Assembly (NCBI GenBank): GCA_963804975.1
Contig: CAWDSG010000002.1
Location: forward strand, 133,288-197,287
From: an uncultured bacterium
Lineage (GTDB): Bacteria > Patescibacteriota > Minisyncoccia > Phycocordibacterales > GWA1-40-21
Reading direction: 5' to 3'
Length of the DNA stretch: 64,000 bases
A program made the position numbers and the translations under genes. Below, piece by piece: positions 2,521-51,064 of the stretch. The notes beneath the pieces are model-generated. The model did not search any database and had not been told where the DNA came from. It worked only from the letters and a program-made list of their open reading frames with translations. Position 1 is the first letter of the stretch; each line of letters opens with the position of its first letter.

Positions 2521-5500
2521 ATGAAAAAATTAAGTTTAAGATTGGCAACATCAGCTGTCTCATTGGCAATGGTGTTTTCAATGGTAGGAATGACGGTTGC
2601 TCAGGCAGCCGCTCTTACGTCAGCGCAGATAAGCGCGATTGTTTCATTGCTTCAATCATTTGGAGCTGATGCTTCAACCGTTGCAAACGTTCAGGCCACC
2701 CTTAGCGGTACGTCTGTATCAATGCCTGCGATGACATCCGGTACATCTGCATACACTTTCACTTCTGATCTCACGATTGGAAGCACTGGTGCGGCAGTTA
2801 CAGCGTTGCAGAATATTCTTATCGCTAAAGGTGATCTCGTTATGCCGGCAGGCGTAGCGGAAGGTTACTTCGGAACGCTTACGCAAGCGGCTCTCGCCAA
2901 ATTCCAAGTTGCAAACGGTATTTCACCGGCAGCGGGATATTTCGGCCCTAAGACAAGAGCTGTCGTGAACGCAATAGGTGGGGTCTCTGTAAATCCTGTA
3001 ACAGGAATAGTGACTTCAGCCGGTTCGGTTTCAGTCGCTCTTGCGGCCACATCGCCTATCGGAGGCACTGTGGTATCGCCGTCAGCAACCGCTCTTCTTG
3101 CTCAGTATGTTTTTAGCGGCTCTGGCCAAATCAACAGCGTTGTCCTTCAGAGAACCGGTGTTTCGTCAGACAATACACTCAATAATGTGTACTTGTACCA
3201 AGGCGCAACCCGTCTCACTGATGCAGCGACAGTTGCAAACGGTATCATCAGTTTCAACAGTCCGAATGGTCTCTTTACGGTAAGCGGCTCAATGACAATT
3301 TCTGTCAGAGCTGATATCGCGACAGGCCAAGGAGGCGAGACAGTTGGTGTATCACTCATATCGCTTACGACAGCGGGTTCATCCGCAGCTGTAAATGTAA
3401 ATGTCTCAGGTTCAACTCAGACAATTGCAAATAACGCGACAGCAGCCGGAGTTACAATTGGTACAAATACCGTTGCAAACTCTTCGGTAAATGCCGGCAC
3501 GGTCAATTACAATATTTGGGCAGCTCCTTTGACGGTCTCAACACGAGCCGTCTATCTTGACGCACTTACGTTGAAATACATAGGTTCAGCTCCGGCATCC
3601 GCATTCCAAAACTTGTCACTTTTTGTTGACGGTTCAAAGGTAGGAACCGCAAGCATCAACAGCAACAATTTTGCTGTCTTTGATCTTTCGGCTTCTCCTT
3701 TCTCGCTTACAACAGGAGGTCACACAGTTGAAGTCCATGCGGACATCGTTGGTGGCGCAAATTACAATGGTTCATTCACTCTTCAGAATCAGGCGGACGT
3801 AATGCTTGCCGATTCTCAGCTTCAGGGTGTCTACATTGCAATTTTGAACGTAAGCTCATCCGTATTCTCACAGAATGTCGGAGGCACGGTTGCCATCAAC
3901 CCCGGTTCAATCACGGTTTCACAGGATCCTTCATTCAGCACTACACAGATTACTGGCGGTTCAACAAACGTTGCCATCGCCCAGTTTTTGCTGAAGGACT
4001 ACGGTGAAGCGGTCAAAATTTCACAATTGTCAGTACAGCCAACTCTCGCGAGTGCCTACATTGCAGGCGTAAGCAGCACAACGGCATCGTCATTGAATAA
4101 TGTCGGATTGTATGTAAACGGCTCTCAAGTAGGTTCACTCACGAACTGGACAGGCACTGCGATCACATTCAATCTCGGTTCATCCTTGGTTGTTCAGGCA
4201 GGCCAAACTGTCACATTGACAGTCAAAGCTGACTCAATCAATTCAGGATATCAGAATTACACAGCGGGCAGCTTATATGTCACTCTCTCGGGTGTTGCAA
4301 ACAACGCTCAAGGTTTGACTTCAAGCGCCATCTCAACTGTCCCGGCAACCGGAGTTCAAAGCACCACTTTGTCCTTGGGTTCTGGGGTGACATCACTCGC
4401 AGCAAATTCTGCGTATTCAAGCCAGCAAGTTCTTGCTAACTCAAGCGGTCCGGTGAAAATCGGTTCATTCATGTTGCAAGACGGTTCATTCGAAGATGTT
4501 CAATTGACAAACATTAATGTCGCTGTGGGAGGCACTCTTCCTTTGACAAGCTTGTCAAATCTGTACACTTCGGAGAATACGACACCTGTTAACCCGGCGG
4601 CTTCAAACAGCTTCTCGGTCAACGATGTCATCGCAAAGAACTCTTCAAAACAGATTGATGTCTATGCAAATGTCGGCCAGATTCCTTCAACACAAACGAC
4701 AGCTACAACTTCGATTGCTTTTGCTGGAAGCTTTGGTGGCACCACAGCAACAACATCTATTGGTGTTGGTTCTGCAACAAGCACTTTCGTTGTTCTAGCT
4801 GGAAATTATAGCTATGTGGTATCGCAATTGGTCTCGGCGATTAATGCTTCATCTACGTCATTGGTAACCGCTGCTGTTACTGCTACAGGCGCGACTTCAC
4901 AGACAATTACTTTGACTGCTAAATCAGCTGGTTCAGATGGAAATAAAATCAAGTATATAATTGCAGGAGCTGCTACTGGTACAATTAACGGAGGAGGATC
5001 AGGAGCAGGAGGTACAGGAACTCTTGCTGGCGGTGGAGGTGTCGCTTCAAGCGCGACAATTGTCACAACTTTGACTGTTACAGCTCAGGGTATGACAAGC
5101 CATTCGCCTGTAAGTTTCTCACCTTCTGCATCACAAGTAGGGCAGACAATTACAGTTACAAGCGGTGGAATGACTATCGCTGACGCTATCGTGAGCACTT
5201 CACCAATTTCTCAGCTTGTTGTCGGAGGTTCAACGTTCTCTGTTGCGGTCTACAACGCGGTTTCATCCGTGGGTAACTCAACAATTACGGAAATGGACTT
5301 CGCAACAGATAATAGCGATTCGGCAAGCAGCACGATTTCTTCGGTTACTGTGGGCGGCCAAACCGCTTCGGTAGTCGGAAATGTGGCTAAAGTTACCGGT
5401 CTTAACATCACTGTCCCTCAAGGACTTGCTGGTACGAATATTCCGGTTTCAGTCACTTACAACAATGTTGGTATAGGCGGTCTCCAGATAGATAATCAAG

Positions 5501-6111
5501 CAAGCAATGTGGAATTGACTCTTGTTAAATCGCAATCTGGCAGTTCGCAGGTTACTACATTAGGTCCTGATGCAAACAATCTTCCTGTCACAGCAAACTC
5601 AATGTATCTTGTCGCTTCAAAACCGACAATTACGGTTTCTGGGCCGGCAAGCAATATTTTGCAGGGTACACAGAACGTTATTAACGTTACAATATCAGCA
5701 GACAGCGCTGGACCAATAAGTTTGGGCCAATTGCCTATAGTGATATCGTTGGCAGGCAGCGGAATGTACATGGCATCTCAGACACCGGTTGTGAAAGTTG
5801 ACGGAGCTACTCTAAACGGCTCACTCTATGAGGCTCTTGCATCTTCATCACCAAACGATTCGGATACTGTGGACATAGTGTTTGGTCCTGAATACGGACC
5901 ATTCACTGGCACCCATACATTCCAGATCTACGTTAATTTATCCGGCAACATAACAAGCGGCACGTCTGTTCAGACGAAGCTTGATACAGCGGATCAATTC
6001 CTGTGGACTGATGTAAACGGCAGTGTTAACGATACCGGTCTAGATTTGGACGCTACAAACGTAACCAATTATCCAACTAACGCCATAACAGGCGTAAGTT
6101 CAGGTTCATAA
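2521..6111 (+). CDS. secreted cell-surface protein: signal peptide + peptidoglycan-binding domain + ~1000 aa S/T/G/A/V-rich repetitive region
   Basis: N-terminus MKKLSLRLATSAVSLAMVFSMVGMTVAQAAA (signal peptide). GSTGAAVTALQNILIAKGDL...GYFGTLTQAALAKFQVANGISPAAGYFGPKTRAVVN matches the PG_binding_1 fold. The rest is low-complexity Ser/Thr-rich. Confidence 0.8.
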   Translation: MKKLSLRLATSAVSLAMVFSMVGMTVAQAAALTSAQISAIVSLLQSFGADASTVANVQATLSGTSVSMPAMTSGTSAYTFTSDLTIGSTGAAVTALQNILIAKGDLVMPAGVAEGYFGTLTQAALAKFQVANGISPAAGYFGPKTRAVVNAIGGVSVNPVTGIVTSAGSVSVALAATSPIGGTVVSPSATALLAQYVFSGSGQINSVVLQRTGVSSDNTLNNVYLYQGATRLTDAATVANGIISFNSPNGLFTVSGSMTISVRADIATGQGGETVGVSLISLTTAGSSAAVNVNVSGSTQTIANNATAAGVTIGTNTVANSSVNAGTVNYNIWAAPLTVSTRAVYLDALTLKYIGSAPASAFQNLSLFVDGSKVGTASINSNNFAVFDLSASPFSLTTGGHTVEVHADIVGGANYNGSFTLQNQADVMLADSQLQGVYIAILNVSSSVFSQNVGGTVAINPGSITVSQDPSFSTTQITGGSTNVAIAQFLLKDYGEAVKISQLSVQPTLASAYIAGVSSTTASSLNNVGLYVNGSQVGSLTNWTGTAITFNLGSSLVVQAGQTVTLTVKADSINSGYQNYTAGSLYVTLSGVANNAQGLTSSAISTVPATGVQSTTLSLGSGVTSLAANSAYSSQQVLANSSGPVKIGSFMLQDGSFEDVQLTNINVAVGGTLPLTSLSNLYTSENTTPVNPAASNSFSVNDVIAKNSSKQIDVYANVGQIPSTQTTATTSIAFAGSFGGTTATTSIGVGSATSTFVVLAGNYSYVVSQLVSAINASSTSLVTAAVTATGATSQTITLTAKSAGSDGNKIKYIIAGAATGTINGGGSGAGGTGTLAGGGGVASSATIVTTLTVTAQGMTSHSPVSFSPSASQVGQTITVTSGGMTIADAIVSTSPISQLVVGGSTFSVAVYNAVSSVGNSTITEMDFATDNSDSASSTISSVTVGGQTASVVGNVAKVTGLNITVPQGLAGTNIPVSVTYNNVGIGGLQIDNQASNVELTLVKSQSGSSQVTTLGPDANNLPVTANSMYLVASKPTITVSGPASNILQGTQNVINVTISADSAGPISLGQLPIVISLAGSGMYMASQTPVVKVDGATLNGSLYEALASSSPNDSDTVDIVFGPEYGPFTGTHTFQIYVNLSGNITSGTSVQTKLDTADQFLWTDVNGSVNDTGLDLDATNVTNYPTNAITGVSSGS

Positions 6112-6159
6112 CCACTTGTGATCAAGCAGTAACTTCTGGTTATTGTTTGATGGTTAAAC

Positions 6160-6189
6160 AAAAATCCCCGAAAGGGGATTTTTGTTTTG
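6160..6189 (+). terminator. rho-independent terminator (AUCCCC-GAAA-GGGGAU + U-tract)
   Basis: aaaaatccccgaaaggggatttttgtttt immediately after the stop of the 2521..6111 gene. Confidence 0.8.
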
Positions 6190-6203
6190 CCAAAAAATCT
6201 CTC

Positions 6204-6240
6204 CCCCGAGGTTAAACCTCGGGGGAATTATCCACAGAAA
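6204..6240 (+). repeat. hairpin repeat copy 1 (left end of IS200-like element)
   Basis: cccccgaggttaaacctcgggggaattatccacagaaa. Confidence 0.8.
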
Positions 6241-6280
6241 TTTATAATAAAAATATTCTTTACTATATAATATGTAGCAA

Positions 6281-7027
6281 ATGCAAAGATCGTTGAATTT
6301 TTCCGAAGGCGAATATTATCATGTATACAACAGAGGAGTGGAGAAAAGAAAGATATTTATTGACCAAAATGATTATCAAAGATTTGTTCTTCTATTGAAT
6401 ATTTTTAACGGAAGCGAATCCGTAAATGTAAGGGATCTCAAAGAAAAATCGGAGCCCATAAGCCCTATCTACCGGCTCCGAGGTTTAACCTCGGGGGAAT
6501 TATCCACTTTGAAATTGGCAAAATCAGAAAAAATCAAAGAAAACCTTGTGGATATAGGGGTTTATTGCCTTATGCCGAATCATTTCCATTTTTTAATAAA
6601 GGAAATAAAAGAAGGCGGAATAACTGATTTTATGCATAAATTGACCACTGGTTACACGATGTACTTCAATAAGAGGTACGAAAGAGTGGGCTCTCTTTTT
6701 CAAGGCACGTTTAAAGCGGAGCATGCCGATACGGATGAATATCTGAAATATCTTTATTCTTACATACATTTGAATCCCATAAAACTGATCCAATCGGATT
6801 GGGAAGAAAAAGGGATACACGATATGAAAAGAGCTAAAAATTTTTTAAAAAATTACGAATATTCAAGTTATTGCAACTATCACAATCCGAAAAAATGCAA
6901 TTTGGGGATAATAAACAAAAAATCATTCCCGGAATATTTTTCTTTACCGAGCGATTTTGATAAAAATATATTTAACTGGATAAACCCCGAGGTTAAACCT
7001 CGGGGTAATTGTCCACAGAATTTTTGA
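6281..7027 (+). CDS. tnpA: IS200/IS605-type / RAYT-like Y1 (HUH) transposase TnpA, carrying an in-frame copy of the element hairpin
   Basis: Motifs YHVYNRG (N-terminal), CLMPNHFHFLI (HUH), YSYIHLNPIK (catalytic Tyr + NP). A ~40-aa insertion (…PIYRLRGLTSGELSTLK…) coincides with repeat copy 2. Confidence 0.75.
   Translation: MQRSLNFSEGEYYHVYNRGVEKRKIFIDQNDYQRFVLLLNIFNGSESVNVRDLKEKSEPISPIYRLRGLTSGELSTLKLAKSEKIKENLVDIGVYCLMPNHFHFLIKEIKEGGITDFMHKLTTGYTMYFNKRYERVGSLFQGTFKAEHADTDEYLKYLYSYIHLNPIKLIQSDWEEKGIHDMKRAKNFLKNYEYSSYCNYHNPKKCNLGIINKKSFPEYFSLPSDFDKNIFNWINPEVKPRGNCPQNF
6476..6507 (+). repeat. hairpin repeat copy 2 (internal, inside tnpA, in frame)
   Basis: ctccgaggtttaacctcgggggaattatccac. 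The loop is TTTAA rather than TTAAA. Confidence 0.8.
6985..7020 (+). repeat. hairpin repeat copy 3 (right end; overlaps the last 14 codons of tnpA)
   Basis: ccccgaggttaaacctcggggtaattgtccacagaa. Confidence 0.8.
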
Positions 7028-7061
7028 AAAACAAAATTTTTTATTGATAGAATAGGCCATA

Positions 7062-8588
7062 ATGATTTCAAAAAATAAATTCCATATTATGGCCGCCGTT
7101 ATCGCGGCAATTTCTTTTTTTGGTTTTATATTTGTAAATCAAGCATTTGCAAAAATATCTATTGTTGAGGTTATGTATGATGCTAAAGGAACTGATACCG
7201 ACAAAGAATGGGTTAAAATAGTAAATGACAATGAATCGGATTATGATATTTCTAAAATTAAATTAACTATCAATGGCAGTAATCACTTAGTAAAAGATCC
7301 TAACGGTTCAACTGTTATAAATAAAGGCGATTCTATTATTTTAGCGGATAATCCTGATAATTTTAAAATTAATTATCCCAATTATAACGGAAAATTATTT
7401 GATAGCGTTGTTTCTTTGACAAACACTTCCGGAACAGTGGCAATTAATTATAATGATACACTGATTGATTCAATGTCTTATGATTCTTCAATGGGGGCGT
7501 CTGGAGACGGTAATTCTTTACAAAAGATTGATAATGTCTGGAAAGCAGAAACTCCAACAATTGGCTTTCCCGAAGATTATGAACCGACTCAAAATCCTCC
7601 GGCCACGACCACCCCCGATAATTCAGATGATTCCGGTGATGCAAGTACAACTTCTACAACCTCGGCAACCTCAACCGCTACTACGACTGTTATCACCAAA
7701 ATAGTATACGTTTCAAGTCACGCAAGCCCGGAGGACTTGAGCGATTTGGAAATAACCCCGGCATTTGAGATTTCCGCGGGCAGGGAGAGAACAGCATCTG
7801 TTGGCGCGCCGGTGCAATTTTCCGCAAAATACAGCGCTTCACAGGATCTATCAATATATCCGCAGATATTTGACTGGTCATTCGGCGATGGCACATCGGC
7901 TTCAGGCAAAGATATTTCGCACATTTATAAATATCATGGTGATTACACGGTGATTTTGAATGGTACGTGCAACGGCATTGATTCCGTTTCTCGTACGACG
8001 GTGCATGCGCTTTCTCCCGATGTTTCGATTATTGCAATTCTAAACGGTGATGTACAGATTATGGATAATAGCGATACTGAAATCAATCTCGGCAACTGGA
8101 AGCTGAAAGATTTATCCGGCGAATTTATTTTTCCCGCAGATACCATAGTACTTCCGGGCAAAAGTATTATCCTTTCAAACGAAGATACAAAAATAAAAGC
8201 AGGCACGAATGACAAATTATATCTTTATAATCCTTCGGGCGGGCAAGTCGCCTTCGCAAATTTTTCGAATAATGAATTTCCATCCGCGTCTTCAAGCGAA
8301 GTTTTAAGCGGCATTGTTGAGGATAATTTAAACTCAACAGTGGAAAAAGCGGAGGCACTCGTGTCTCTTTTGAAAAAATATAATGCGTCTTTTCCGATAA
8401 AAAATATTCAAACGGCAAAGGCTTCCGCCACCGCGATAACTTCGATTTCGCTTGGCGACGGCAATCTGCTTCCGCAAAAGCAAAATATGGCGCAGACGGC
8501 ATCGGCCGCGGAGAGCTTAAATTTTTCCGCTGCAGCAACAACCTCCCGCGGATTCTGGGCCCGATTCAAGGAATTTTTCCATCTCTGA
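7062..8588 (+). CDS. secreted protein with two lamin-tail domains and a PKD domain
   Basis: Signal peptide. ISIVEVMYDAKGTDTDKEWVKIVNDN..ISKIKL (LTD-like). FDWSFGDGTSASGKDISHIYKYHGDYTV (PKD). Second LTD-like segment NLGNWKLKDLSGEFIFPADTIVLPGKSIIL. Confidence 0.7.
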   Translation: MISKNKFHIMAAVIAAISFFGFIFVNQAFAKISIVEVMYDAKGTDTDKEWVKIVNDNESDYDISKIKLTINGSNHLVKDPNGSTVINKGDSIILADNPDNFKINYPNYNGKLFDSVVSLTNTSGTVAINYNDTLIDSMSYDSSMGASGDGNSLQKIDNVWKAETPTIGFPEDYEPTQNPPATTTPDNSDDSGDASTTSTTSATSTATTTVITKIVYVSSHASPEDLSDLEITPAFEISAGRERTASVGAPVQFSAKYSASQDLSIYPQIFDWSFGDGTSASGKDISHIYKYHGDYTVILNGTCNGIDSVSRTTVHALSPDVSIIAILNGDVQIMDNSDTEINLGNWKLKDLSGEFIFPADTIVLPGKSIILSNEDTKIKAGTNDKLYLYNPSGGQVAFANFSNNEFPSASSSEVLSGIVEDNLNSTVEKAEALVSLLKKYNASFPIKNIQTAKASATAITSISLGDGNLLPQKQNMAQTASAAESLNFSAAATTSRGFWARFKEFFHL

Positions 8589-9717: not shown

Positions 9718-10389
9718 ATGTCGCACACGGTACATCCATATTCACACAGATTGGGAATCATCAGGGACTGGAAATCCCGCTGGTTTTCGTCCGGCCAAAA
9801 ATACAAGGATTTTTTAAGGGCCGATACGATGCTTCGGGAATATCTTGAAAAGAAAATGAGGGGCCAGTACATCGCTTCCATAGAAATGGAAAGAAACGAC
9901 AAGACATTCAGATTGATCGTGAAGACATCAAGGCCGGGCGTCATTATCGGCAGAAGCGGAGAGGGCTCGGTCAAATTAAGGAATGAAATAATGAAATTTG
10001 CGGCAAAGAACGAACTTTCAATTCCGAAAGATTTTAAATTGGATATTGAGGAAGTAAAATCTCCGGAATCAAACGCCGCTATCGTTTCTCAAATGATTGC
10101 CGAAGGGCTTGAAAAAAGATTGCCGTTTCGAAGGGTTATGAAGCAGACCGTTGAAAAGGTCATGGCAAACCGCGATGTGAAAGGCGTAAGGATTTATTGC
10201 GGAGGAAGATTGGGCGGCGCGGATATTGCCCGCTCGGAAGAATTGAAAAAAGGAAGGATTCCACTTCAAACCTTGAGAGCCGATATTGATTATGCGGAGG
10301 AAAAAGCCCATATGACATACGGCGACCTGGGAATAAAGGTTTGGATTTATAAAGGCGATATTTTCAATGAAAAACAACGAACAAAGTGA
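9718..10389 (+). CDS. rpsC: 30S ribosomal protein S3
   Basis: VHPYSHRLGIIRDWKSRWFS... KH domain; operon position. Confidence 0.93.
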   Translation: MSHTVHPYSHRLGIIRDWKSRWFSSGQKYKDFLRADTMLREYLEKKMRGQYIASIEMERNDKTFRLIVKTSRPGVIIGRSGEGSVKLRNEIMKFAAKNELSIPKDFKLDIEEVKSPESNAAIVSQMIAEGLEKRLPFRRVMKQTVEKVMANRDVKGVRIYCGGRLGGADIARSEELKKGRIPLQTLRADIDYAEEKAHMTYGDLGIKVWIYKGDIFNEKQRTK

Positions 10390-38964: not shown

Positions 38965-39216
38965 ATGAAAATAGATTACGACAAAATCGCCGATGCTATG
39001 TATATATACTTGGCAAAAGGCGCAATGTGAGGTAAAATTAAAAAGACCATCGAGGTCGGCAATTGTTTGCTTGTTGATGTGGATAAAGACGGAAATATAC
39101 TCGGTATTGAGATACTTTTTGTTTCTTCGTGGCTCAACACGAAAAATATTGAAAAAGATTTCAAAAAAGGTTTGCTTCCCGTCAGCATCATTTCCAAATT
39201 GCCAGCGATGGCGTAA
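38965..39216 (+). pseudogene. DUF2283-family small protein gene interrupted by an in-frame TGA (39028-39030)
   Basis: MKIDYDKIADAMYIYLAKGAM*GKIKKTIEVGNCLLVDVDKDGNILGIEILFVSS... (DUF2283-like MKIxYDxxxDxLYIxL...DxDxxGNIVGIEIL). Confidence 0.55.
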
Positions 39217-39787: not shown

Positions 39788-40574
39788 AGTAAAATAGTTC
39801 AATCTTGATATTTAATAAAACTGTGGATAGCCATTTTGTCAAATGAGATGATTATATAAAGGTCTTTTAACAAAAAATAAGTTTTATAGCTTTTATATTA
39901 TTGATTTCTTAAAGTTAGTGATTTACCATAAATGTAACAAAAAACCTCCCCTGAGTTCGGAACTAGAAGAGGTTTTTGTTATCTAGTTTTTAACTAGATA
40001 AGATATCAGTTTGCAAAGGTCTCGTTATCTTTTTTAAAGGTTTCGAGACTTTTGTTTTGCTATTATTTTTTGTGGCTGGAAATGGGTGTGCCCATGTTCC
40101 ATTGTGATTTTGACACCACATTAAACCATCTGAAAAATAACAAAAAGCAAATTTACTCATAAGTTTTTTATTTTTTTTATATTCTTTTGACTAGAAAGAA
40201 CTAGATGTTGTGACCGACCACACTTATTAAAATCATCCCTGCAATACCTAACATTCTACTGATGGCATGATTATAATAATTTTCATCCAACAAAAAACTC
40301 CTATACTGAATCGGAGTATCAAGGAACACTCATTTTTTTAGAAAGAATGTGCCTCAACTTGTAGGAGTATAAAGGTTTTATTCTTGATACTCCGATTCAA
40401 AACGGGAGTTCTGTTTTTTCCAATATGGGGATTTGTACTTTACTAATTAAATGAATGTCAACCAATAACACTCCTACCTTTATATTTTAGCATAAATGTT
40501 TTGAAGAAAGCAAAATCTATAATTGTGGATAACTCAAGGCAAAATTCTCCATATTTTTCAACCCTTTTTTCTCC

Positions 40575-43891: not shown

Positions 43892-44878
43892 ATGGATAAA
43901 ACCAAGTTATTTTTTACCACGTCCAATATTTGTTCATATATTAAAAAAGAGAATTTTTCTCATATTGTTGTTATATCTTCAAAAAATATCTTTAATAAGC
44001 ATAAATGGATTTTTAATCTTATAAATAAATGCGGTTTGGATGTTAAAACAATTTTTGTCAAAGACGGAGAAAAAGCAAAAAGTTTTGAACAATTTAAATA
44101 TCTGCTGGGACAATTTTCAAAATTTAAATTGGACAAATCATCGCTAATAATATGCATAGGTGGCGGTTCCGTCGGAGATTTGTCCGGTTTTGCGGCATTC
44201 GTGTATTTGAGAGGCATTGGCTTTATCAATATCCCAACAACTCTGCTTGCCCAGGTTGACAGCGCACATGGCGGCAAAAACGGAATAAATTTCAATGGTT
44301 TTAAGAATCAAATCGGCACCATATATTTGCCAAAAGCTGTTTTTATAGATGCAAAATTTCTCAAAACTCTAAATAAAGACCAAATCATTGACGGATTAGG
44401 CGAGATAATAAAATACGGTTTTATAAAAGATAAATCAATCTTGTCAGATTTAAACGATTTGAATAAAAATTTGCTGAAAATTATCAGAAAATCCATCAAA
44501 TGTAAATATTTTTACATAGACAAAGATTTGAAAGAAAATTCTGTAAGGAAAATATTGAATATAGGACATACTTTTGGTCATGCTCTTGAGCTGAAATATA
44601 AATTATCACACGGCAAATCGGTCATAATCGGAATGGTGAAAGAATTTGAATTTTGCAAGAAAATCGGTCTATCGGAAGCGGATGTAAAAACAAAATTAAT
44701 CAATATTTTGGATAAATTAAAAATCAATATTGATTTTGATAAATACATTGTTGATAAAAGAGCTTTATTGCATGACAAAAAAGTCAAATCTAATTTTATA
44801 GATTTTCCGATAGTAAAGGAATCTGGAAAATCTTTTATTAAAAAACTGAATATTGATTCAATTAAAAAATATATATGA
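43892..44878 (+). CDS. 3-dehydroquinate synthase-like (DHQS/iron-containing alcohol dehydrogenase superfamily)
   Basis: GGGSVGDLSGFAAFVYLRGIGFINIPTTLLAQVDSAHGGKNGINF...NIGHTFGHALE. Confidence 0.7.
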   Translation: MDKTKLFFTTSNICSYIKKENFSHIVVISSKNIFNKHKWIFNLINKCGLDVKTIFVKDGEKAKSFEQFKYLLGQFSKFKLDKSSLIICIGGGSVGDLSGFAAFVYLRGIGFINIPTTLLAQVDSAHGGKNGINFNGFKNQIGTIYLPKAVFIDAKFLKTLNKDQIIDGLGEIIKYGFIKDKSILSDLNDLNKNLLKIIRKSIKCKYFYIDKDLKENSVRKILNIGHTFGHALELKYKLSHGKSVIIGMVKEFEFCKKIGLSEADVKTKLINILDKLKINIDFDKYIVDKRALLHDKKVKSNFIDFPIVKESGKSFIKKLNIDSIKKYI

Positions 44879-45552
44879 ATAAATTCTACGTAATAGGAAC
44901 GCCGATAGGGAATTTGGAAGATATCACGTACAGAGCGGTAAGGATTTTGGGTGAAGTTGATCTGATACTTTGCGAAGATACAAGAGTTACGATAAATCTT
45001 TTGAATAAATACGAAATCAAAAAGCCGACCATGAGCTACCATTCCCAAAGCAAAATTTCAAAAACAGAGAAAATTATTGAGATGATAAAAGAAGGAAAAA
45101 CTCTGGCTTTGGTTTCTGATGCCGGCACGCCGGCAATTTCCGACCCCGGCTCTATGCTCGTTTCAAAAATTCGTGAAAATTTTCCGGAAATTGAAATTAT
45201 CGCCATTCCTGGGCCGAGTGCTTTGACATCAGCACTTTCTGTTTCAGGTCTGCCCAGCTCGGAATTTCTTTTCCTTGGTTTTTTGCCGCATAAAAAAGGC
45301 AGAGAAACCTTATTCAAAGAAATCAGCGAATCGGAAAGAACAGTCGTGTTTTATGAATCTCCGCACAGAATATTGAAAACTTTGGCTTCTTTAAAAAAAT
45401 ATACGGATAAAAGAAAAATCGTCATTGCGCGCGAACTTTCAAAAATATACGAACAGATAATTTCCGGCACTCCGCTTGAAGTTGAAAGGTATTTTTCTGA
45501 TAATAAAGACAAAATTCGTGGCGAGTTTGTGGTAATGGTAAGCGCCAGATGA
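44875..45552 (+). CDS. rsmI: 16S rRNA (cytidine1402-2'-O)-methyltransferase RsmI-like (tetrapyrrole methylase fold)
   Basis: FYVIGTPIGNLEDITYRAVRILGEVDLILCEDTR... Confidence 0.8.
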   Translation: MNKFYVIGTPIGNLEDITYRAVRILGEVDLILCEDTRVTINLLNKYEIKKPTMSYHSQSKISKTEKIIEMIKEGKTLALVSDAGTPAISDPGSMLVSKIRENFPEIEIIAIPGPSALTSALSVSGLPSSEFLFLGFLPHKKGRETLFKEISESERTVVFYESPHRILKTLASLKKYTDKRKIVIARELSKIYEQIISGTPLEVERYFSDNKDKIRGEFVVMVSAR

Positions 45553-45589
45553 TATTTATTTTTATTCTCAATTATGCTAATATATCAAT

Positions 45590-45826
45590 ATGATTAAAAT
45601 TTCAACGATTTTCATATTAGGCATTTGTATATTTTTCATCCAATTTTTGGGCATTCCAATGGGTTGGAAAAATTTTCTTTACGCAGTTTTCGGCTTAGCC
45701 ATTGCAATATTATCTATCCTTATACGGAGAGAACTTCACGAGGTGCTGAGGCATCTTCATACCGAGCCGATCAGCACCGAAACGTTTTCGGAAAGCAGGC
45801 CGAAAGAGTCAGAATCCATCCAATAA
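45590..45826 (+). CDS. hypothetical small membrane protein (2 TM)
   Basis: 78 aa; followed by a terminator. Confidence 0.45.
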   Translation: MIKISTIFILGICIFFIQFLGIPMGWKNFLYAVFGLAIAILSILIRRELHEVLRHLHTEPISTETFSESRPKESESIQ

Positions 45827-45851
45827 AAAACTCCTTAAAAAGGAGTTTTTT
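45825..45851 (+). terminator. rho-independent terminator
   Basis: aaaaaactccttaaaaaggagtttttt. Confidence 0.75.
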
Positions 45852-45909
45852 ATTGCAAGCAGGCGGATATTCTTTTAAAAAATCCAAACAAGTGTTACAA
45901 TAACGGCAA

Positions 45910-47793
45910 ATGGATCATGAAAGAATCACATATTTTGGGGAGACCGATTCACGCAACAGGCGAGTGAAATTTGGCATTAAAGCCAAAGACAGAACAAAAC
46001 ATGTTTATGTGATAGGAAAGACGGGTATGGGAAAATCCACTCTCCTTGAGAATATGGCTATCCAGGACCTTCAAAATGGCGAAGGAATGGCGTTTATAGA
46101 TCCTCATGGTAAGACGGCTGATCTCCTCTTGAATTTCGTGCCTGCGGAAAGAATAAAAGATGTGGTTTATTTCGCCCCTTTTGACACGGATTATCCGATT
46201 TCTTTCAATATCATGGAAGATGTCGGTCCGGAAAAGCGGCATCTTGTGGTCTCCGGCCTTATGAGCGCATTCAAGAAACTTTTCGGCGAGGAAAGTTTTT
46301 CAGACCGTATGCAATATATTCTGCAAAACACGATTCTTGCTTTGCTTGAATATCCGGGTGCGACGATGCTTGGCATTAACAGAATGCTTACAGATAAAAT
46401 ATACAGGAATAAAGTCATAGCGAATGTCACCGATATGTCAGTGAAAACTTATTGGACTGCCGAATATGCCGGATATACTGAGCGATACGCCGCTGAAGCT
46501 GTTCCTGCAATCCAGAATAAAATCGGCCAGTTCACTTCAAATCCTCTGATACGAAATATTGTCGGCCAGCCAAAATCCAGTTTTGATTTCCGCAAGATAA
46601 TGGATGAAAGCAAAATTGTGATCATAAATCTTTCAAAAGGCCTTGTGGGCGAGTCGAATGCAAATCTGCTCGGTTCTATGCTTATTACCAAGATTTATCT
46701 GGCGGCGATGTCCCGCGCCAATATATCGCAAAAAGTGCTTAAAAATCTTCCGAATTTTTATCTGTATGTGGATGAATTCCAATCTTTTGCCAATGAATCT
46801 TTTGCGGATATTCTTTCCGAAGCAAGAAAATACAAGCTGAATCTTACGATTGCCCATCAGTACGTAGAGCAGATGTCCGAAGAGGTGCGCGCTGCGGTTT
46901 TTGGCAACGTCGGCACAATGATTACTTTCAGAGTCGGCGCGTATGATGCGGAAATTCTTGAAAAAGAATTCGCTCCGCAATTTACGATAGAAGATTTGGT
47001 CAATCTCGGCAAATATCAGATGTATCTGAAACTGATGATAGACGAAGTCAGCTCCGCTCCGTTCTCGGCCTCCTCTTTGCCGCCGTTTCCGGAACCGGTC
47101 ATTTCTTATAAAAAGGAAATAATTGAAAGTTCAAGAGAGCAATTTACCGTGAAAAAATCGGAAATTGAAAGTTTCATACAAAAATGGCATGACGAAGGGA
47201 AACCTCCTCCAAAAATCCCACAAACTCAGGCTAGGCCGCAAAATATACAGAGAGATAATTCAAGAAATTTTGCGAAAGCCGAAGTTCCGGCCCAAATGTA
47301 TAAAGAAACAAGGCCGGAAACAAGAAGGCCTATGGATGAAAAGACGTATAAAACAACGCCGATCCATCCGCCGATTGAAACCGAGATCGGTGGAGAATTC
47401 TTGCCGCTGAAAGATTTCGCCAAAAAAACCGTTATACCGCCAAAAGACCTGGCCCCTGGCCGGGCAGGCGGTCAGGCAGAAAAAAAGGCAGAAATAGCTC
47501 CTCAAAAAAATAATAATCCAGAATCAAAAACCACTCCTCATGTTCAGAGTAAAACTATGAGCAAGGAGAATCTTTCCGATTTGAGATCGGCTCTTGAAGC
47601 GGTTATGAAACAAAAATCTCCGAATAATCCAGAATCAAATGCCGCGAAAACGGAGCCGGAAACAAAAACAATTCCAAAACAATCGGAACATCATGCGAAA
47701 GAAAAAGTTGAAAATAAGAAAGAAGAGGCAAAATCGGCAAATGATATGAAAGAAATTCCTGAGAAGGATTTGAAAAAAATATTTGATCTATAA
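45910..47793 (+). CDS. TraD/TraG/VirD4-like P-loop ATPase (paralogue of 21140..23926) with K/E/P-rich disordered C-terminal tail
   Basis: GKTGMGKSTLL, IDPHG, FYLYVDEFQ, RKYKLNLTIAHQYVEQM, VFGNVGTMITFRV. Confidence 0.6.
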   Translation: MDHERITYFGETDSRNRRVKFGIKAKDRTKHVYVIGKTGMGKSTLLENMAIQDLQNGEGMAFIDPHGKTADLLLNFVPAERIKDVVYFAPFDTDYPISFNIMEDVGPEKRHLVVSGLMSAFKKLFGEESFSDRMQYILQNTILALLEYPGATMLGINRMLTDKIYRNKVIANVTDMSVKTYWTAEYAGYTERYAAEAVPAIQNKIGQFTSNPLIRNIVGQPKSSFDFRKIMDESKIVIINLSKGLVGESNANLLGSMLITKIYLAAMSRANISQKVLKNLPNFYLYVDEFQSFANESFADILSEARKYKLNLTIAHQYVEQMSEEVRAAVFGNVGTMITFRVGAYDAEILEKEFAPQFTIEDLVNLGKYQMYLKLMIDEVSSAPFSASSLPPFPEPVISYKKEIIESSREQFTVKKSEIESFIQKWHDEGKPPPKIPQTQARPQNIQRDNSRNFAKAEVPAQMYKETRPETRRPMDEKTYKTTPIHPPIETEIGGEFLPLKDFAKKTVIPPKDLAPGRAGGQAEKKAEIAPQKNNNPESKTTPHVQSKTMSKENLSDLRSALEAVMKQKSPNNPESNAAKTEPETKTIPKQSEHHAKEKVENKKEEAKSANDMKEIPEKDLKKIFDL

Positions 47794-47934
47794 TATGTGG
47801 ATTTTTGCAGTTATTTTTTTGATTATTTTTGCTTTGATTGTTGCTGTTTGGGCAAAAATTGAAGGTAGAAAAGAAAAAGATCGCCTTGAAAAAGGCAGGC
47901 TTTCAGCCGAAGATTTTGAGATTATTGAGGGAGA

Positions 47935-48696
47935 TTAAAATAAATTTTTTAAAATCCTCAGTTTGGCGACAATTATTCCGGATAGCCAATTCGGATATTT
48001 GCCGAAATTTTTGAATACTATTTTATAATTATTCCAAGCCATGGATATTTTTCTTTCGTAAGAAATTCCGCCGGAATGCCGCGTATAAGCTGTCGTGATT
48101 TCTTTTAAATTTTTCATTTTTCCGAGCAATCCCAATTTTAAAAATAAATCCAAATCTTCCACACAGGATAATTTTTCATCATATCCGCCGATTTTTTCAG
48201 CGGTTTTTTTCCTGCACATTACTGCCGACTGGGCAATCTGATTGAATCTAAGCATTTTATTCCTTATATCACTATCCTCGGTTTTAAAATCGGTATTTTT
48301 TATGAAATTATTTTTTTCATCGACAATTTTGATATTTGAACCGATTAAAACATAATCCGGATTATTTTCGAGATACTCGAATTGTTTCTGCAGTTTATTT
48401 TTATCAATCCAATAATCATCGCTATCAAGCACTGCGATATATTCTCCTTTTGACAGGGAAAGTCCAAGATTTCTGCTCTTGGAAATTCCCAGAAAAGATT
48501 TATTTTTATTATATTTTATTCTTTTGTCTTTGGCGGCAAAAGGCTCCACGATGGCTCTCGTATCATCTACAGAACCGTCATCAATAATTATAAGTTCCCA
48601 GCCAGAAAATGTCTGATCCAAGATGCTTTCTATGGCTTTAGCGATAAAATCAGCCCTGTTTCTTGTTATGGTAATTATGCTTATTTTCGGATTCAT
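47935..48696 (-). CDS. glycosyltransferase family 2
   Basis: ISIITITRNRADFIAKAIESILDQTF...ELIIIDDGSVDDT...DSDD. Confidence 0.75.
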   Translation of the reverse strand: MNPKISIITITRNRADFIAKAIESILDQTFSGWELIIIDDGSVDDTRAIVEPFAAKDKRIKYNKNKSFLGISKSRNLGLSLSKGEYIAVLDSDDYWIDKNKLQKQFEYLENNPDYVLIGSNIKIVDEKNNFIKNTDFKTEDSDIRNKMLRFNQIAQSAVMCRKKTAEKIGGYDEKLSCVEDLDLFLKLGLLGKMKNLKEITTAYTRHSGGISYERKISMAWNNYKIVFKNFGKYPNWLSGIIVAKLRILKNLF

Positions 48697-48697
48697 A

Positions 48698-49564
48698 TTA
48701 TATTTTTATCCATTCTTTAGGTATGAGGTCTATTTCATCTGTGGTTTTTTTTGCAATCCATTGTTTAGGAACGATTATAATTTTGTTTTTATTGGGATTA
48801 AGCCATGCGCCCCACCAGGAAAAAGTGGAATTTGCAGCAATATGATGCGTGCATTTGCTCATCAAGATAATTTCTTCATAATCCGGAATATCTGGATTTG
48901 AGACAAAATGCATCGGACAAAGCAATTTTAAATTTTCTTTTGCCCAAGATATATCGTCGGAAAAAACAAATACGGATATTTTTTTAAGATATTTTGACAA
49001 TAACAAATCAACAGCTTTTTCATAATAGGGAATTTCGAGCAGTCCGTTATATGCCACTGAATAAGGATTGGATACAAAATCGCCTCGGCGAATATGCAAA
49101 GACACAGGAATTTCGCCTCTGGATGAGCAATCGGACATCTGAAGAATTATTTTTTTTGCAGATTTACCTAAAGGATTTTTCAAGGATAATTCTTTGCGGA
49201 TCAAATTCTCGTATTTCAGGAAATATTTTTGATTTCCCCAGTATCCTTCGTAATATGTTGATTTTGATTTCATGAAAGAAGGATAATAAGCATATTCATC
49301 TATTTTTCTTATGTGCCTTAATATTTTTCTTAAGATAACCTTGAATTTTGTATTGAATTTCTCAGATAATTCTTCGGATGCGATATCCGCTTTTATATTG
49401 AATTTATCAAGAACAAAATTTCTTTTAGCGTCGCGTTCCGGCTGATTATCATAGTATGAAATATCCAAATATAAAGGTTCTTTGCGCTCCAAAGACAAAG
49501 CTCTGCCAAAAGCGTATTGAAACATCTGATTGCCAATACCGGCTTTTATTTTAACGATAATCAT
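48698..49564 (-). CDS. alpha-1,2-fucosyltransferase (GT11)
   Basis: N-terminal GIGNQMFQYAFGRAL and HIRRGDF motifs typical of GT11. Confidence 0.7.
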   Translation of the reverse strand: MIIVKIKAGIGNQMFQYAFGRALSLERKEPLYLDISYYDNQPERDAKRNFVLDKFNIKADIASEELSEKFNTKFKVILRKILRHIRKIDEYAYYPSFMKSKSTYYEGYWGNQKYFLKYENLIRKELSLKNPLGKSAKKIILQMSDCSSRGEIPVSLHIRRGDFVSNPYSVAYNGLLEIPYYEKAVDLLLSKYLKKISVFVFSDDISWAKENLKLLCPMHFVSNPDIPDYEEIILMSKCTHHIAANSTFSWWGAWLNPNKNKIIIVPKQWIAKKTTDEIDLIPKEWIKI

Positions 49565-51064
49565 TTATTTTTTGAGCTTAGCGAAATAATTCACAGTAGT
49601 AAAAATTTCCTGCAATTCCGAATATTGTTTTATTTCATATAAACTGTTTTGCAATATTCTGTATATTTTATAGGTATTTTTTAATAGGTAATAGAAATCT
49701 TGAAAATATGTCCTTGAATCTATATTTGCCCCGCCGAATTCAAACTGAATGGCTTTTATGGCTTTTTTCTCCAGCATATTTTTTGCGCCTTTTAACACTT
49801 CGAGCTCGTGCCCTTCAACATCTATTTTAAGCAAATCAATATTTTTAATTTTATTTTCTTCGCAAAAATCATCCAGTTTTTTTATTCTGACGGTTTCTTT
49901 CTGAGCAAATTTTTTGTTTACATGCTCAAGCTGTCTTTTATATACTGAAGCAAGTCCGGATCCGGCTTCATCATAATATAAATATTCTTTTTTTCCGGCA
50001 GATCCGAACCCTAAATTATATCTTTCAATATTTTTAATTTGCGAAGTGTTTTTGAGCAGCTCGGAATAGGTGATTTTACCCGGTTCAAACGAATAAATTT
50101 TTGCATTGCCGTGAAATATGCTGTCAATAAGATTGGCATATTGGCCCTTATTTGCTCCGATGTCGAATATGACGGGGAATAGGGTTTTGTTTTTGGCACG
50201 GATCATTTCAAGAATATATTTTTCGCCGCTATTTGTTACTTCACTGAAGCCAAAATTCATGCCTTTGAGGGATATTTTATGAAGCAATTCAAAAAATCTC
50301 TGAAAAAATGCTTTTCCCCAAAACAAATATTCGAGTTTTTTCAGGCATTTTTTTATTTTCGAAAAAAACATTATCCGTAATTTTGTAAAAGATAATTTTA
50401 CCGAATGATAATCTTTCTCGTCTATTTTGACATTCAAAGTGCCGCTATATCCTTCGATTATAGGGACTTCGCTAAAATTAATACATGTTTTTTTATCAGC
50501 CAAAGCGTCTTTGATGGCGAGATTGAGAGCCATTTCCATCGGCTGATTTTTTGAATCATTTATAAAATTATCATATTTAAAAAGATATTTTGTGAAAAAA
50601 TCAGGTTTGGCGATGAATATGCCGCTGTAAGCGTATATCTTGTTTGGATCAAAATCAGAAATTACATAAACGTCATCTCGGATTGACGATATTATTTTAT
50701 TCAAATTCTTAATATAATATCTGCCGGTAATTTTGACTATAAAATCGCTTTGTTTCAGGACGGCTGATTGGCTCAACGCATGTTTCATAAGAAGCATTTC
50801 CTCATAACCCTTGCCATATTGGGGAGGGAAGGGTTTTCTGTGGTATTCCACAATTTCGGACAGTTTATTTTTATTAAATAGGTCCGATATTTTTTTTGAT
50901 TTATAATTCGAACTATCGCAAAAAACTATGGGATATTTTACAGATTGGTGAAGTTTTTCGATTACTGAGGCGTAGTCCTGCTCTCTTACGGCTGGATCCG
51001 TCCGCTTTAAACGAAAAGTCGTGGATGGATTTATTGAAGCTGTTAAAAAAATGGATATTTTCAT
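49565..51064 (-). CDS. FkbM-family methyltransferase domain protein (N-terminal unknown domain)
   Basis: C-terminal FDIGANKGQYANLI...IYSFEP... Confidence 0.55.
   Translation of the reverse strand: MKISIFLTASINPSTTFRLKRTDPAVREQDYASVIEKLHQSVKYPIVFCDSSNYKSKKISDLFNKNKLSEIVEYHRKPFPPQYGKGYEEMLLMKHALSQSAVLKQSDFIVKITGRYYIKNLNKIISSIRDDVYVISDFDPNKIYAYSGIFIAKPDFFTKYLFKYDNFINDSKNQPMEMALNLAIKDALADKKTCINFSEVPIIEGYSGTLNVKIDEKDYHSVKLSFTKLRIMFFSKIKKCLKKLEYLFWGKAFFQRFFELLHKISLKGMNFGFSEVTNSGEKYILEMIRAKNKTLFPVIFDIGANKGQYANLIDSIFHGNAKIYSFEPGKITYSELLKNTSQIKNIERYNLGFGSAGKKEYLYYDEAGSGLASVYKRQLEHVNKKFAQKETVRIKKLDDFCEENKIKNIDLLKIDVEGHELEVLKGAKNMLEKKAIKAIQFEFGGANIDSRTYFQDFYYLLKNTYKIYRILQNSLYEIKQYSELQEIFTTVNYFAKLKK

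Follow-up and report, generated by a model that had tools for sequence, protein, structure and literature searches.

A Y1 HUH gene of Patescibacteria with matched hairpins, its candidate recognition sites, before, inside and at the end of the gene

Y1 HUH enzymes are paired with short DNA repeats in several described systems. One is the REPtron of E. coli, with the enzyme TnpA_REP and its repetitive extragenic palindromes (REPs) (Nunvar 2010, Ton-Hoang 2012 and Bertels & Rainey 2011, as cited in the text of PMC6006769). Another is the TIRtron (PMC3733652), in which the flanking repeats lie at fixed distances, are sometimes self-complementary and may overlap the gene ends. The largest class of Y1 HUH proteins outside insertion sequences (ISs) is subclass 2.1, which is equivalent to the Group 1 REP-associated tyrosine transposases (RAYTs) of Bertels (PMC5581495) and probably corresponds to the TIRYTs of Di Nocera et al. 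2013 (PMC3733652). For subclass 2.1, Quentin et al. 2018 (PMC6006769) searched both automatically and by hand without detecting a REP-like sequence. In the section 'Class specific REP sequence features' of the same paper, a REP lying in frame inside tnpA_REP is described as unique to subclass 2.4, where it sits between HuH and Y and varies in length. The published sets of subclass 2.1, Group 1 and TIRYT proteins have no Patescibacteria members in the searched text of PMC6006769, PMC5581495 and PMC3733652, and our full-text literature searches returned nothing on such loci in Patescibacteria. Here we describe one, a Y1 HUH gene with three hairpin copies in a 64-kb stretch of DNA from an uncultured Patescibacteriota bacterium (contig CAWDSG010000002.1 of assembly GCA_963804975.1, positions 133,288 to 197,287). 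We call this whole stretch the window, and positions are counted from its first letter.

The gene, at 6281-7027 (248 aa), is bracketed and interrupted by three same-strand copies of a hairpin, CCGAGGTT[A/T]AACCTCGG, each followed by a GGGGAATTATCCAC tail (6202-6240, 6478-6507 and 6984-7020; Table 1). We read this as a resident, vertically inherited locus of the RAYT/TIRYT class that has its own hairpin recognition sites at three stations, and we would put the probability of that reading at roughly 0.6. We regard the description as secure; the hairpins are most likely the DNA sites that the enzyme recognises, by a mechanism that we infer. A search with the 17-nt core, allowing up to 3 mismatches, found no site in the window beyond these three; 0.06 sites are expected in 64 kb, and none of 100 shuffles reached three. 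They are also the only hairpins in the window with the apex AGG-N5-CCT. Folded as single-stranded DNA, the 5', internal and 3' copies have energies of -13.4, -8.5 and -14.4 kcal/mol (z = -5.2, -2.5 and -5.3). The internal copy is read in frame as CTC CGA GGT TTA ACC TCG GGG GAA TTA TCC ACT, which gives LRGLTSGELST, and lies after the first beta strand/helix A and before the HUH strand.

Table 1. Features of the Y1 HUH locus and its borders, in window coordinates.
Feature	Position	Strand	Remark
Intrinsic terminator of the upstream 1196-aa surface-protein gene	6146..6197	+	Inverted repeat (I2), then T-run
5' hairpin, TCCCCCGAGGT-TAA-ACCTCGGGGGA; 11-bp stem, 3-nt loop, apex AGG-N5-CCT	6202..6226	+	
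5' tail, ATTATCCACAGAAA; includes TTATCCACA at 6228-6236	6227..6240	+	
Promoter-like stretch; -10 hexamer TATAAT at 6266-6271, 9 nt 5' of ATG	6241..6271	+	
Y1 HUH gene, 248 aa	6281..7027	+	NHFH aa 100-103 (6578-6589); Tyr161 in YIHLNP (6761-6778); YSSY aa 194-197
Internal hairpin, CCGAGGT-TTA-ACCTCGG; 7-bp stem	6478..6494	+	3-nt loop is one Leu codon
Internal tail, GGGAATTATCCAC; window lineage only	6495..6507	+	
3' hairpin, ACCCCGAGGT-TAA-ACCTCGGGGT; 10-bp stem, covers last 14 codons	6984..7006	+	
3' tail, AATTGTCCACAGAA; one base off the DnaA-box consensus	7007..7020	+	
Promoter-like TTGAAA-18-TAGAAT, preceded by TG, for the downstream LTD/PKD-protein gene (ATG 7062)	7024..7053	+	Within repeated module

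Much of this layout had been recognised in the original prediction, which was made from the letters alone. It had described three hairpin-and-tail copies on one strand at and inside the gene, a Y1 HUH enzyme with intact HUH and Tyr motifs, a third copy within the gene between the N-terminal strand region and the HUH motif, and a 3' copy over the last 14 codons. All four points hold (the third copy is at 6478-6507, in frame), and so does its suggestion that the hairpins belong to the gene and behave in a REP/RAYT-like way and not at random.

The same layout is found in relatives, each with hairpins of its own sequence. We scanned 80 genome loci (39-52% identity) and several metagenome loci, 86 genes together, for perfect hairpins. 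An arm was counted as matched by the 6 nt adjoining the loop, and for the null, 5' zones were paired with 3' zones taken from other loci. The same arm occurred upstream of the start and at the 3' end in 44 of the 86 loci, compared with a mean of 1.15 and a maximum of 6 in the shuffled pairings. When 8-nt arms were used, 28 loci matched against 0.17 by shuffled pairing, and an arm was common to the 5' and internal zones at 18 loci where 0.89 were expected. The median hairpin centre is 40 nt before the start codon for the 5' copy and 8 nt past the stop codon for the 3' copy. The arms themselves are unlike between loci (CCCCGAGGT, TCCAAGGT, GTACAAGGG, CAGCAAGGT, CCAGGAAGGC, CGCGAAGGA, TGCGTTAGG and others). 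What they share is the apex AGG-N5-CCT, present in 47 of the 49 loci with cognate hairpins and in 26 of 431 background hairpins. When 44 hairpins are aligned without gaps, the three apex pairs are constant, and each other stem pair shows all four Watson-Crick types. Two loci, L122 and L163 (43% identity), have the window's own hairpin at all three stations.

Short palindromes are generally abundant, and some metagenomic matches to the window's 19-nt hairpin are ordinary terminators, so we considered whether the copies could be chance palindromes or an artefact of composition. The three core sites in the window and the 44 matched loci, each far above its expectation, already refute this, and we give the idea practically no weight.

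The internal hairpin is an old, maintained feature of the family that sits in a disordered loop. At 15 of the 44 loci, in homologues at 40-64% identity, it matches the flanking hairpin of its own locus at 90% identity or more. All 15 have their centre at +163 to +205 nt, in the same loop and at the second codon position, so that the 3-nt hairpin loop makes up a single codon. The peptide encoded there reflects the palindrome (R-G-x-T-S, Q-G-x-P-L or Q-E-G-R-A-F-L-E) and is not conserved as protein. In the AlphaFold model of the window protein the segment encoded by the internal hairpin is a loop of low confidence (aa 61-80) that links helix A with the HUH strand; like it, residues 236-248, encoded by the 3' hairpin, have a low predicted local distance difference test (pLDDT) score. 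From N43 to I92 the loop has the same median, 28 aa, in loci that have the internal hairpin (n=15) and in those that do not (n=61), and in hairpin-free relatives the loop peptide is the same but for one or two residues (QN.PL in place of QG.PL, for instance). The equal lengths and the near-identical peptides indicate that the hairpin is an ancestral part of the loop that decayed in some lineages, and that it is no added cassette. On a neighbour-joining tree it is scattered over many branches and is missing from one clade with CTAGG-type 5-nt loops.

The loop of the window protein is an outlier at 48 aa, about 20 codons beyond the family median. The original prediction had put the addition by the third copy at about 40 codons in frame and suggested a self-insertion of a minimal hairpin unit or a regulatory structure; the copy is in frame, the length is about half of that claimed, and the shared loop and codon phase of the 15 homologues, together with the equal median loop lengths, contradict a recent insertion. 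It had also named an observation that would speak against it, namely homologues that hold the extra residues with no hairpin-like signal. This holds only by half: the loop does occur naturally in homologues, but many of them carry the hairpin signal within it.

Only the extension in the window looks recent. There the internal copy and its tail agree with the 5' copy at 29 of 30 positions (97%); the internal copies of the related loci L001 and L209 have no tail, and the site in L002 has decayed to PRRPT. The lone mismatch is the centre of the palindrome, where the flanking copies read GGT TAA ACC and the internal copy reads GGT TTA ACC; TAA is a stop in the internal frame. It looks as if a recent event made the internal copy, together with its tail, uniform again with the flanking copies. 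A flanking copy with its 14-nt tail would have overwritten the internal copy in this lineage, and the central base would later have settled as T (TTA, Leu), since TAA would terminate the protein.

Copies are kept alike within loci, as the N5 sequences show by being common within a locus and different between genomes. In the syntenic clade the window has the N5 TTAAA, L001 has TCTCA/TGAGA, and L002 and L209 have TGGAG/CTCCA, and within a locus all copies agree in N5, read directly or as the reverse complement. Comparing the 5' loop with the 3' loop, we find opposite orientations in 27 loci and one shared orientation in 14 (p = 0.06), and the internal loop has the orientation of the 3' copy more often than not (8 vs 4). 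At L026 the loop is flipped and the tail is still on the same side. We infer that a flip without a change of flank is the product of gene conversion or strand exchange between palindromes that can be aligned either way. We also considered the loop flip as a general stop-codon switch and dropped it, as only 2 of the 15 internal loops (those with TTA) would turn into a stop.

Turning to the protein, the open reading frame scores 38.1 bits with Pfam Y1_Tnp (PF01797) against a cutoff of 23. H101, H103 and Y161 are invariant across 82 sequences, and the AlphaFold model, built on 82 homologues, has a mean pLDDT of 84. Foldseek places first 4ER8, the structure of E. coli TnpA_REP with a REP hairpin bound (E 8.7e-6), and next the TnpA proteins of IS608 and ISDra2; a profile search against PDB sequences gave marginal matches only (E 0.28-0.81). 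Subclass 2.1 is described by NH[YF]H, FQ, Y[IV]HLNP, SS in the proximal tail and a median of 238 aa (PMC6006769), and when we compared by eye with Table 1 of that paper, the NHFH, LFQG, YIHLNP and YSSY motifs and the length fit the subclass 2.1 row of TnpA_Y1. The window protein has 248 aa and the family 217-235 aa. TnpA_IS200 (subclass 1.1 in the same table) has about 150 aa and the signature Y---Q, which is not in the window protein; its Tyr motif is YIHLNP, of class 2 (Y---NP). Part of the subclass 2.1 proteins (subgroup 2.1.2) have a C-terminus like a helix-turn-helix (HTH) or Bac_DnaA_C domain (PMC6006769). We detected neither in the window protein: Pfam at E<=1 gave Y1_Tnp only, and Foldseek with the whole model gave no HTH or DnaA match. 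For this reason we dropped a C-terminal DnaA-like domain as the explanation of the DnaA-box-like tail discussed below. Homologues number in the thousands, and the few with a named source are mostly labelled Paceibacterota, Minisyncoccia or Zambryskibacteria; the nearest non-self relative is 68% identical.

The gene appears to be a resident of its genome. A tblastn search found one copy of it in the window. Five genomes have the same gene order (giant PG_binding surface protein, terminator, Y1 gene, LTD/PKD protein), with Y1 identities to the window of 68% (L002), 64% (L001), 60% (L209) and 58% (the P0009 contig). Between the window and L002 the downstream neighbour has 57% identity, a lower value than that of the Y1 gene. 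The terminator at 6146-6197 is the left limit of the unit, and the same terminator lies 5' of the hairpins in L001, L002 and L209. Distant homologues have other neighbours; one lies between gyrA and a methyltransferase. Viral contigs are essentially free of the family, with one distant match, and plasmids gave distant matches to the core domain only.

These results bear on the claim of the original prediction that the locus is an IS200/IS605-type element, which we weighed in the form of an active IS whose left-end and right-end hairpins bracket tnpA and which suffered a recent accidental self-insertion of a minimal hairpin unit. Such an element would share the Y1 HUH fold, and it would account for the same-strand hairpin and tail at both ends in the window, the near-identity of the internal and 5' copies over 30 nt, the 20 aa by which the loop exceeds that of relatives and the differing contexts of the unit in distant homologues. 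However, the Tyr motif is not Y---Q, the best fold match is 4ER8, and there is one copy in 64 kb in a gene order kept in five genomes beside a neighbour at 57% identity. There is also no tnpB gene, 15 divergent homologues have the internal hairpin in one and the same codon phase, inverted pairs of 5' and 3' loops outnumber those of one orientation, and viral contigs and plasmids are essentially free of the family. We consider an active IS very unlikely.

Some genomes hold two divergent paralogues: L027 (3878-4573 and 10001-10657), L085 (1731-2444 and 7243-7932) and pairs in metagenome-assembled genomes (L023/L074 and L053/L082). Where hairpins were found, each paralogue has its own hairpin type; one of the L027 copies holds a stop codon. 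L094 (4331-4907) and L149 have a truncated or chimeric Y1 homologue, whose 5' part (hairpin, promoter and first 11 codons) is near-identical to the L164/L167 type and is joined out of frame to the C-terminal two thirds of another paralogue type. We had considered these as products of a deletion from hairpin to hairpin; the alignment shows a chimera of two paralogue types and no clean deletion at the hairpins. In the window the neighbours of the Y1 gene are a 1196-aa protein rich in Ser, Thr, Ala and Gly (2521-6111) and a 508-aa protein (7062-8588); by Pfam, their counterparts in relatives have PG_binding_1 (upstream) and LTD/PKD (downstream).

Upstream of the gene, the stretch from the 5' hairpin to the ATG contains a -10-like hexamer in 40 of 49 loci; its start is a median of 14.5 nt from the foot of the hairpin, and its end is about 9 nt short of the ATG. 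If this hexamer is the promoter, the 5' hairpin would lie over the -35 region and outside the gene's own transcript, a position that would favour a role at the DNA level and allow autoregulation. In the window the similarity of the two ends extends beyond the hairpins to a repeat of 59 nt (6204-6262 and 6985-7043, 85% identical), which gives a promoter-like module after each hairpin. The 3' hairpin can be extended (6977-7016) by pairing TGGATAA (codons W-I-N, with the conserved Trp233) with TTGTCCA of the tail (-14.4 kcal/mol), although the extended stem may be a coding coincidence.

The hairpins could instead work in RNA and not be protein recognition sites; they would serve the Y1 mRNA as terminator or attenuator, or stabilise its 3' end. 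The 3' copy does lie at the stop codon in most loci, the stems are stable and GC-rich, and on the minus strand the 5' copy looks like a terminator. Against this, the 5' copy is upstream of the -10-like hexamer and so probably outside the gene's own transcript, the plus-strand hairpins have no T-run after them, and a terminator within the coding region would defeat expression. An Rfam search of the region gave nothing at the gathering score, and the sense strand has no excess of G.U-type wobble. Arms that are specific to a locus and travel with the Y1 gene, with AGG-N5-CCT conserved at the apex, are unlike generic terminators. An RNA-level role for the hairpins is therefore, in our judgement, quite improbable.

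The tail raises another possibility. The sequence TTATCCACA in the 5' tail fits the DnaA-box consensus TT[AT]TNCACA (quoted in PMC6006769). Across the family, TTATCCAC is about 8-fold enriched near gene ends (14 in 24.7 kb vs 86 in 1161 kb), the 14 sites falling in 10 of 82 loci, and TT[AG]TC[CA]ACA is about 12-fold enriched there. The 3' tail is kept as TTGTCCACAGG in L209, TTGTCAACA in L002 and TTATCAACAG in L001. The hairpins might then be double-stranded operators for a dimeric regulator, DnaA or another, at two similar promoters, with the internal copy as a by-product. This idea would make sense of the promoter-like module after the hairpin and tail at both the 5' and 3' copies, of the enriched tail motif and of the overlap of the 5' hairpin with the -35 position. 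An operator for a host factor should, however, be conserved in orthologues and recur at other promoters, and here the arms differ and adjoin this gene only. The TTATCCAC sites fall in those 10 of 82 loci, and a maintained internal copy in phase is left unexplained. We regard operators of this kind as a poor bet.

We made some further observations on the tail motif. Perfect TTATCCACA occurs four times in the window, with 0.53 expected (6228-6236, 1857-1865, and on the minus strand 39078-39086 and 40524-40532), and the tails of the internal (6500-6507) and 3' (7009-7017) copies are each TTATCCACA with one base changed. The motif also follows hairpins in L009, L019, L022, L026, L045 and L062. We considered that the locus might be close to oriC and rejected this, as the four perfect sites are scattered in the window and none cluster at the locus. 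In the region 44000-50000 the cumulative GC skew peaks at about 44-48 kb, and past this peak the G+C content falls from about 0.40 to 0.34; this may mark a replication terminus or origin, or a boundary of composition.

We found almost no dispersal of the hairpins in the loci scanned. REP-like spread, which the original prediction had raised, is not what we see around these genes: there are no extra copies in the window, and the flanks of 41 loci (512 kb) hold 7 further copies, each at most 2.1 kb from the gene. As separate observations, L002 (2880-2960 and 3690-3745) and L209 (1409-1443 and 2163-2200) have inverted, REPIN-like doublets on both sides of the gene, and L029 has four spaced copies upstream (about 9780-9960). 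In a metagenome scan the window's 19-nt hairpin was found on at least 120 contigs in at least 103 distinct contexts; among the matches listed, 14 loci had a Y1 homologue nearby and some matches were the ordinary terminators already mentioned. A sub-family with a longer stem, ACCT-CCCGAGGTTAAACCTCGGG-AGGT, occurs in at least 20 distinct contexts, on contigs of about 50% G+C and often with partial copies adjoining, and it flanks Y1 homologues of 38-40% identity (L164, L167 and L200). This indicates REP-like spread in at least one lineage of the protein family. Examples of this sub-family among L089-L207 are L107 (362, 468 and 8579), L128, L190, L164 (3005, 3725 and 3878) and L167 (6582 and 7302).

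Returning to the resident locus with its own recognition sites, we can sketch how it may work. The gene, in a Patescibacteria (Paceibacteria-type) genome, would by its motifs encode an enzyme of subclass 2.1, or Bertels Group 1, and its cognate hairpin would be placed at the -35 region of its own promoter, within the coding sequence of the loop that joins helix A to the HUH strand, and at the stop codon. The enzyme may bind the hairpins when they are extruded as single strands, for example on the lagging-strand template, as TnpA_REP and IS608 TnpA do. The protein contact would be the apex, and the lower stem would need pairing only. Gene conversion or strand exchange mediated by the enzyme could homogenise the copies in either alignment of the palindromes and so flip the loops, and the promoter copy could provide autoregulation.

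Several points count against the reading we prefer. About half of the loci have no detectable matched pair and about two thirds have no internal copy, so no station is indispensable. The covariation count is partly circular, in that the hairpins were picked for perfect inner stems. The promoters were placed by consensus matches, and a scan called no sigma-70 promoter for the Y1 gene. With the NCBIfam RAYT equivalog NF047646 the protein scores 34.5 bits, below the cutoff of 80. On a weak neighbour-joining tree, descent of the internal copies from one origin is the simplest interpretation and not a proven one. Finally, the stem mismatches (5 G.T vs 4 A.C) are too few and show no bias that would bear on RNA or DNA or on the folding strand.

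One could go a step further and propose a self-directed circuit, in which the Y1 enzyme acts on the hairpins in its own promoter, coding sequence and 3' end. We hold this to be unlikely. If it were true, single strands exposed by replication would couple the expression or integrity of the gene to the activity of the enzyme. In loci with a TAA/TTA loop, such as the window, a flip of the internal copy would toggle between Leu and stop and act as a reversible on/off switch. Subclass 2.1 would then gain its first defined substrate and a function unrelated to the spreading of repeats.

The layout is common to many relatives, each with its own hairpin sequence, which suggests what this enzyme class acts on. 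For subclass 2.1 it offers a candidate substrate, a stem of free sequence with an AGG-N5-CCT apex and sometimes a TTATCCACA-like tail. This candidate has three defined positions, and dozens of loci provide natural covariation, so that assays of binding and cleavage are easy to design. The locus is also a clean case of concerted evolution of an enzyme gene with sites in its own promoter and coding sequence, and it shows that a perfect palindrome can persist in frame in a protein loop through long divergence.

We compared the locus with the known systems. Rickettsia palindromic elements (RPEs; as cited in the text of PMC3733652) resemble it in that an in-frame palindrome is tolerated in coding sequence. 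As far as that text goes, RPEs are dispersed in many unrelated genes and have no dedicated enzyme gene, whereas here the palindrome is confined to the gene whose product probably recognises it. The IS200/IS605 elements IS608, ISDra2 and IS200 share the Y1 HUH fold and subterminal hairpins, and in the window hairpin and tail form direct repeats on one strand; across the family, however, loops are inverted in 27 loci and the same in 14. They differ in being multi-copy and mobile, often with tnpB, and IS200 has Y---Q, whereas the gene here is resident and syntenic. IS608 and ISDra2 have imperfect palindromes with guide and cleavage tetranucleotides, and we identified no such motif here.

The REPtron is closer. 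Its E. coli enzyme TnpA_REP is also a Y1 HUH protein with Y---NP, gives the best structural match, and is of low or single copy number and vertically inherited. Both systems have gene-specific flanking hairpins, which here are more often inverted (27 of 41). Divergent paralogues that each have their own hairpin (L053/L082 and the two genes of L085) and the REPIN-like doublets of L002 and L209 are REPtron-like as well. REPtron hairpins have a GT[AG]G tetranucleotide at the foot, whereas the feet here are variable and no GTAG or GTGG was seen; REPtron hairpins are dispersed, whereas the window has no extra copy and the 512 kb of flanks have 7. The conserved apex and the stations at the promoter and inside the gene are found only here.

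An in-frame hairpin is otherwise known from subclass 2.4, which is alike in having its own cognate hairpin in the coding sequence, with the frame kept and a peripheral loop that is predicted to be harmless. Here, in contrast, the hairpin lies before the HuH strand at one position and codon phase, goes with no excess of length over hairpin-free homologues and is kept matched to flanking copies. The TIR consensus of TIRtrons, GGGGWSAS, was not seen here; the window has CGGGGGAATT and the family AGG-N5-CCT instead. With subclass 2.1 the locus shares its motifs, a length near the 238-aa median and a low copy number, here with clear cognate hairpins. For subclass 2.1 and TIRYTs as published no intragenic copy is described, and here there is one. 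The elements are known and their combination is new: a subclass 2.1-like enzyme with clear cognate hairpins, a conserved apex, almost no dispersal and a maintained, phase-fixed intragenic copy 5' of HuH.

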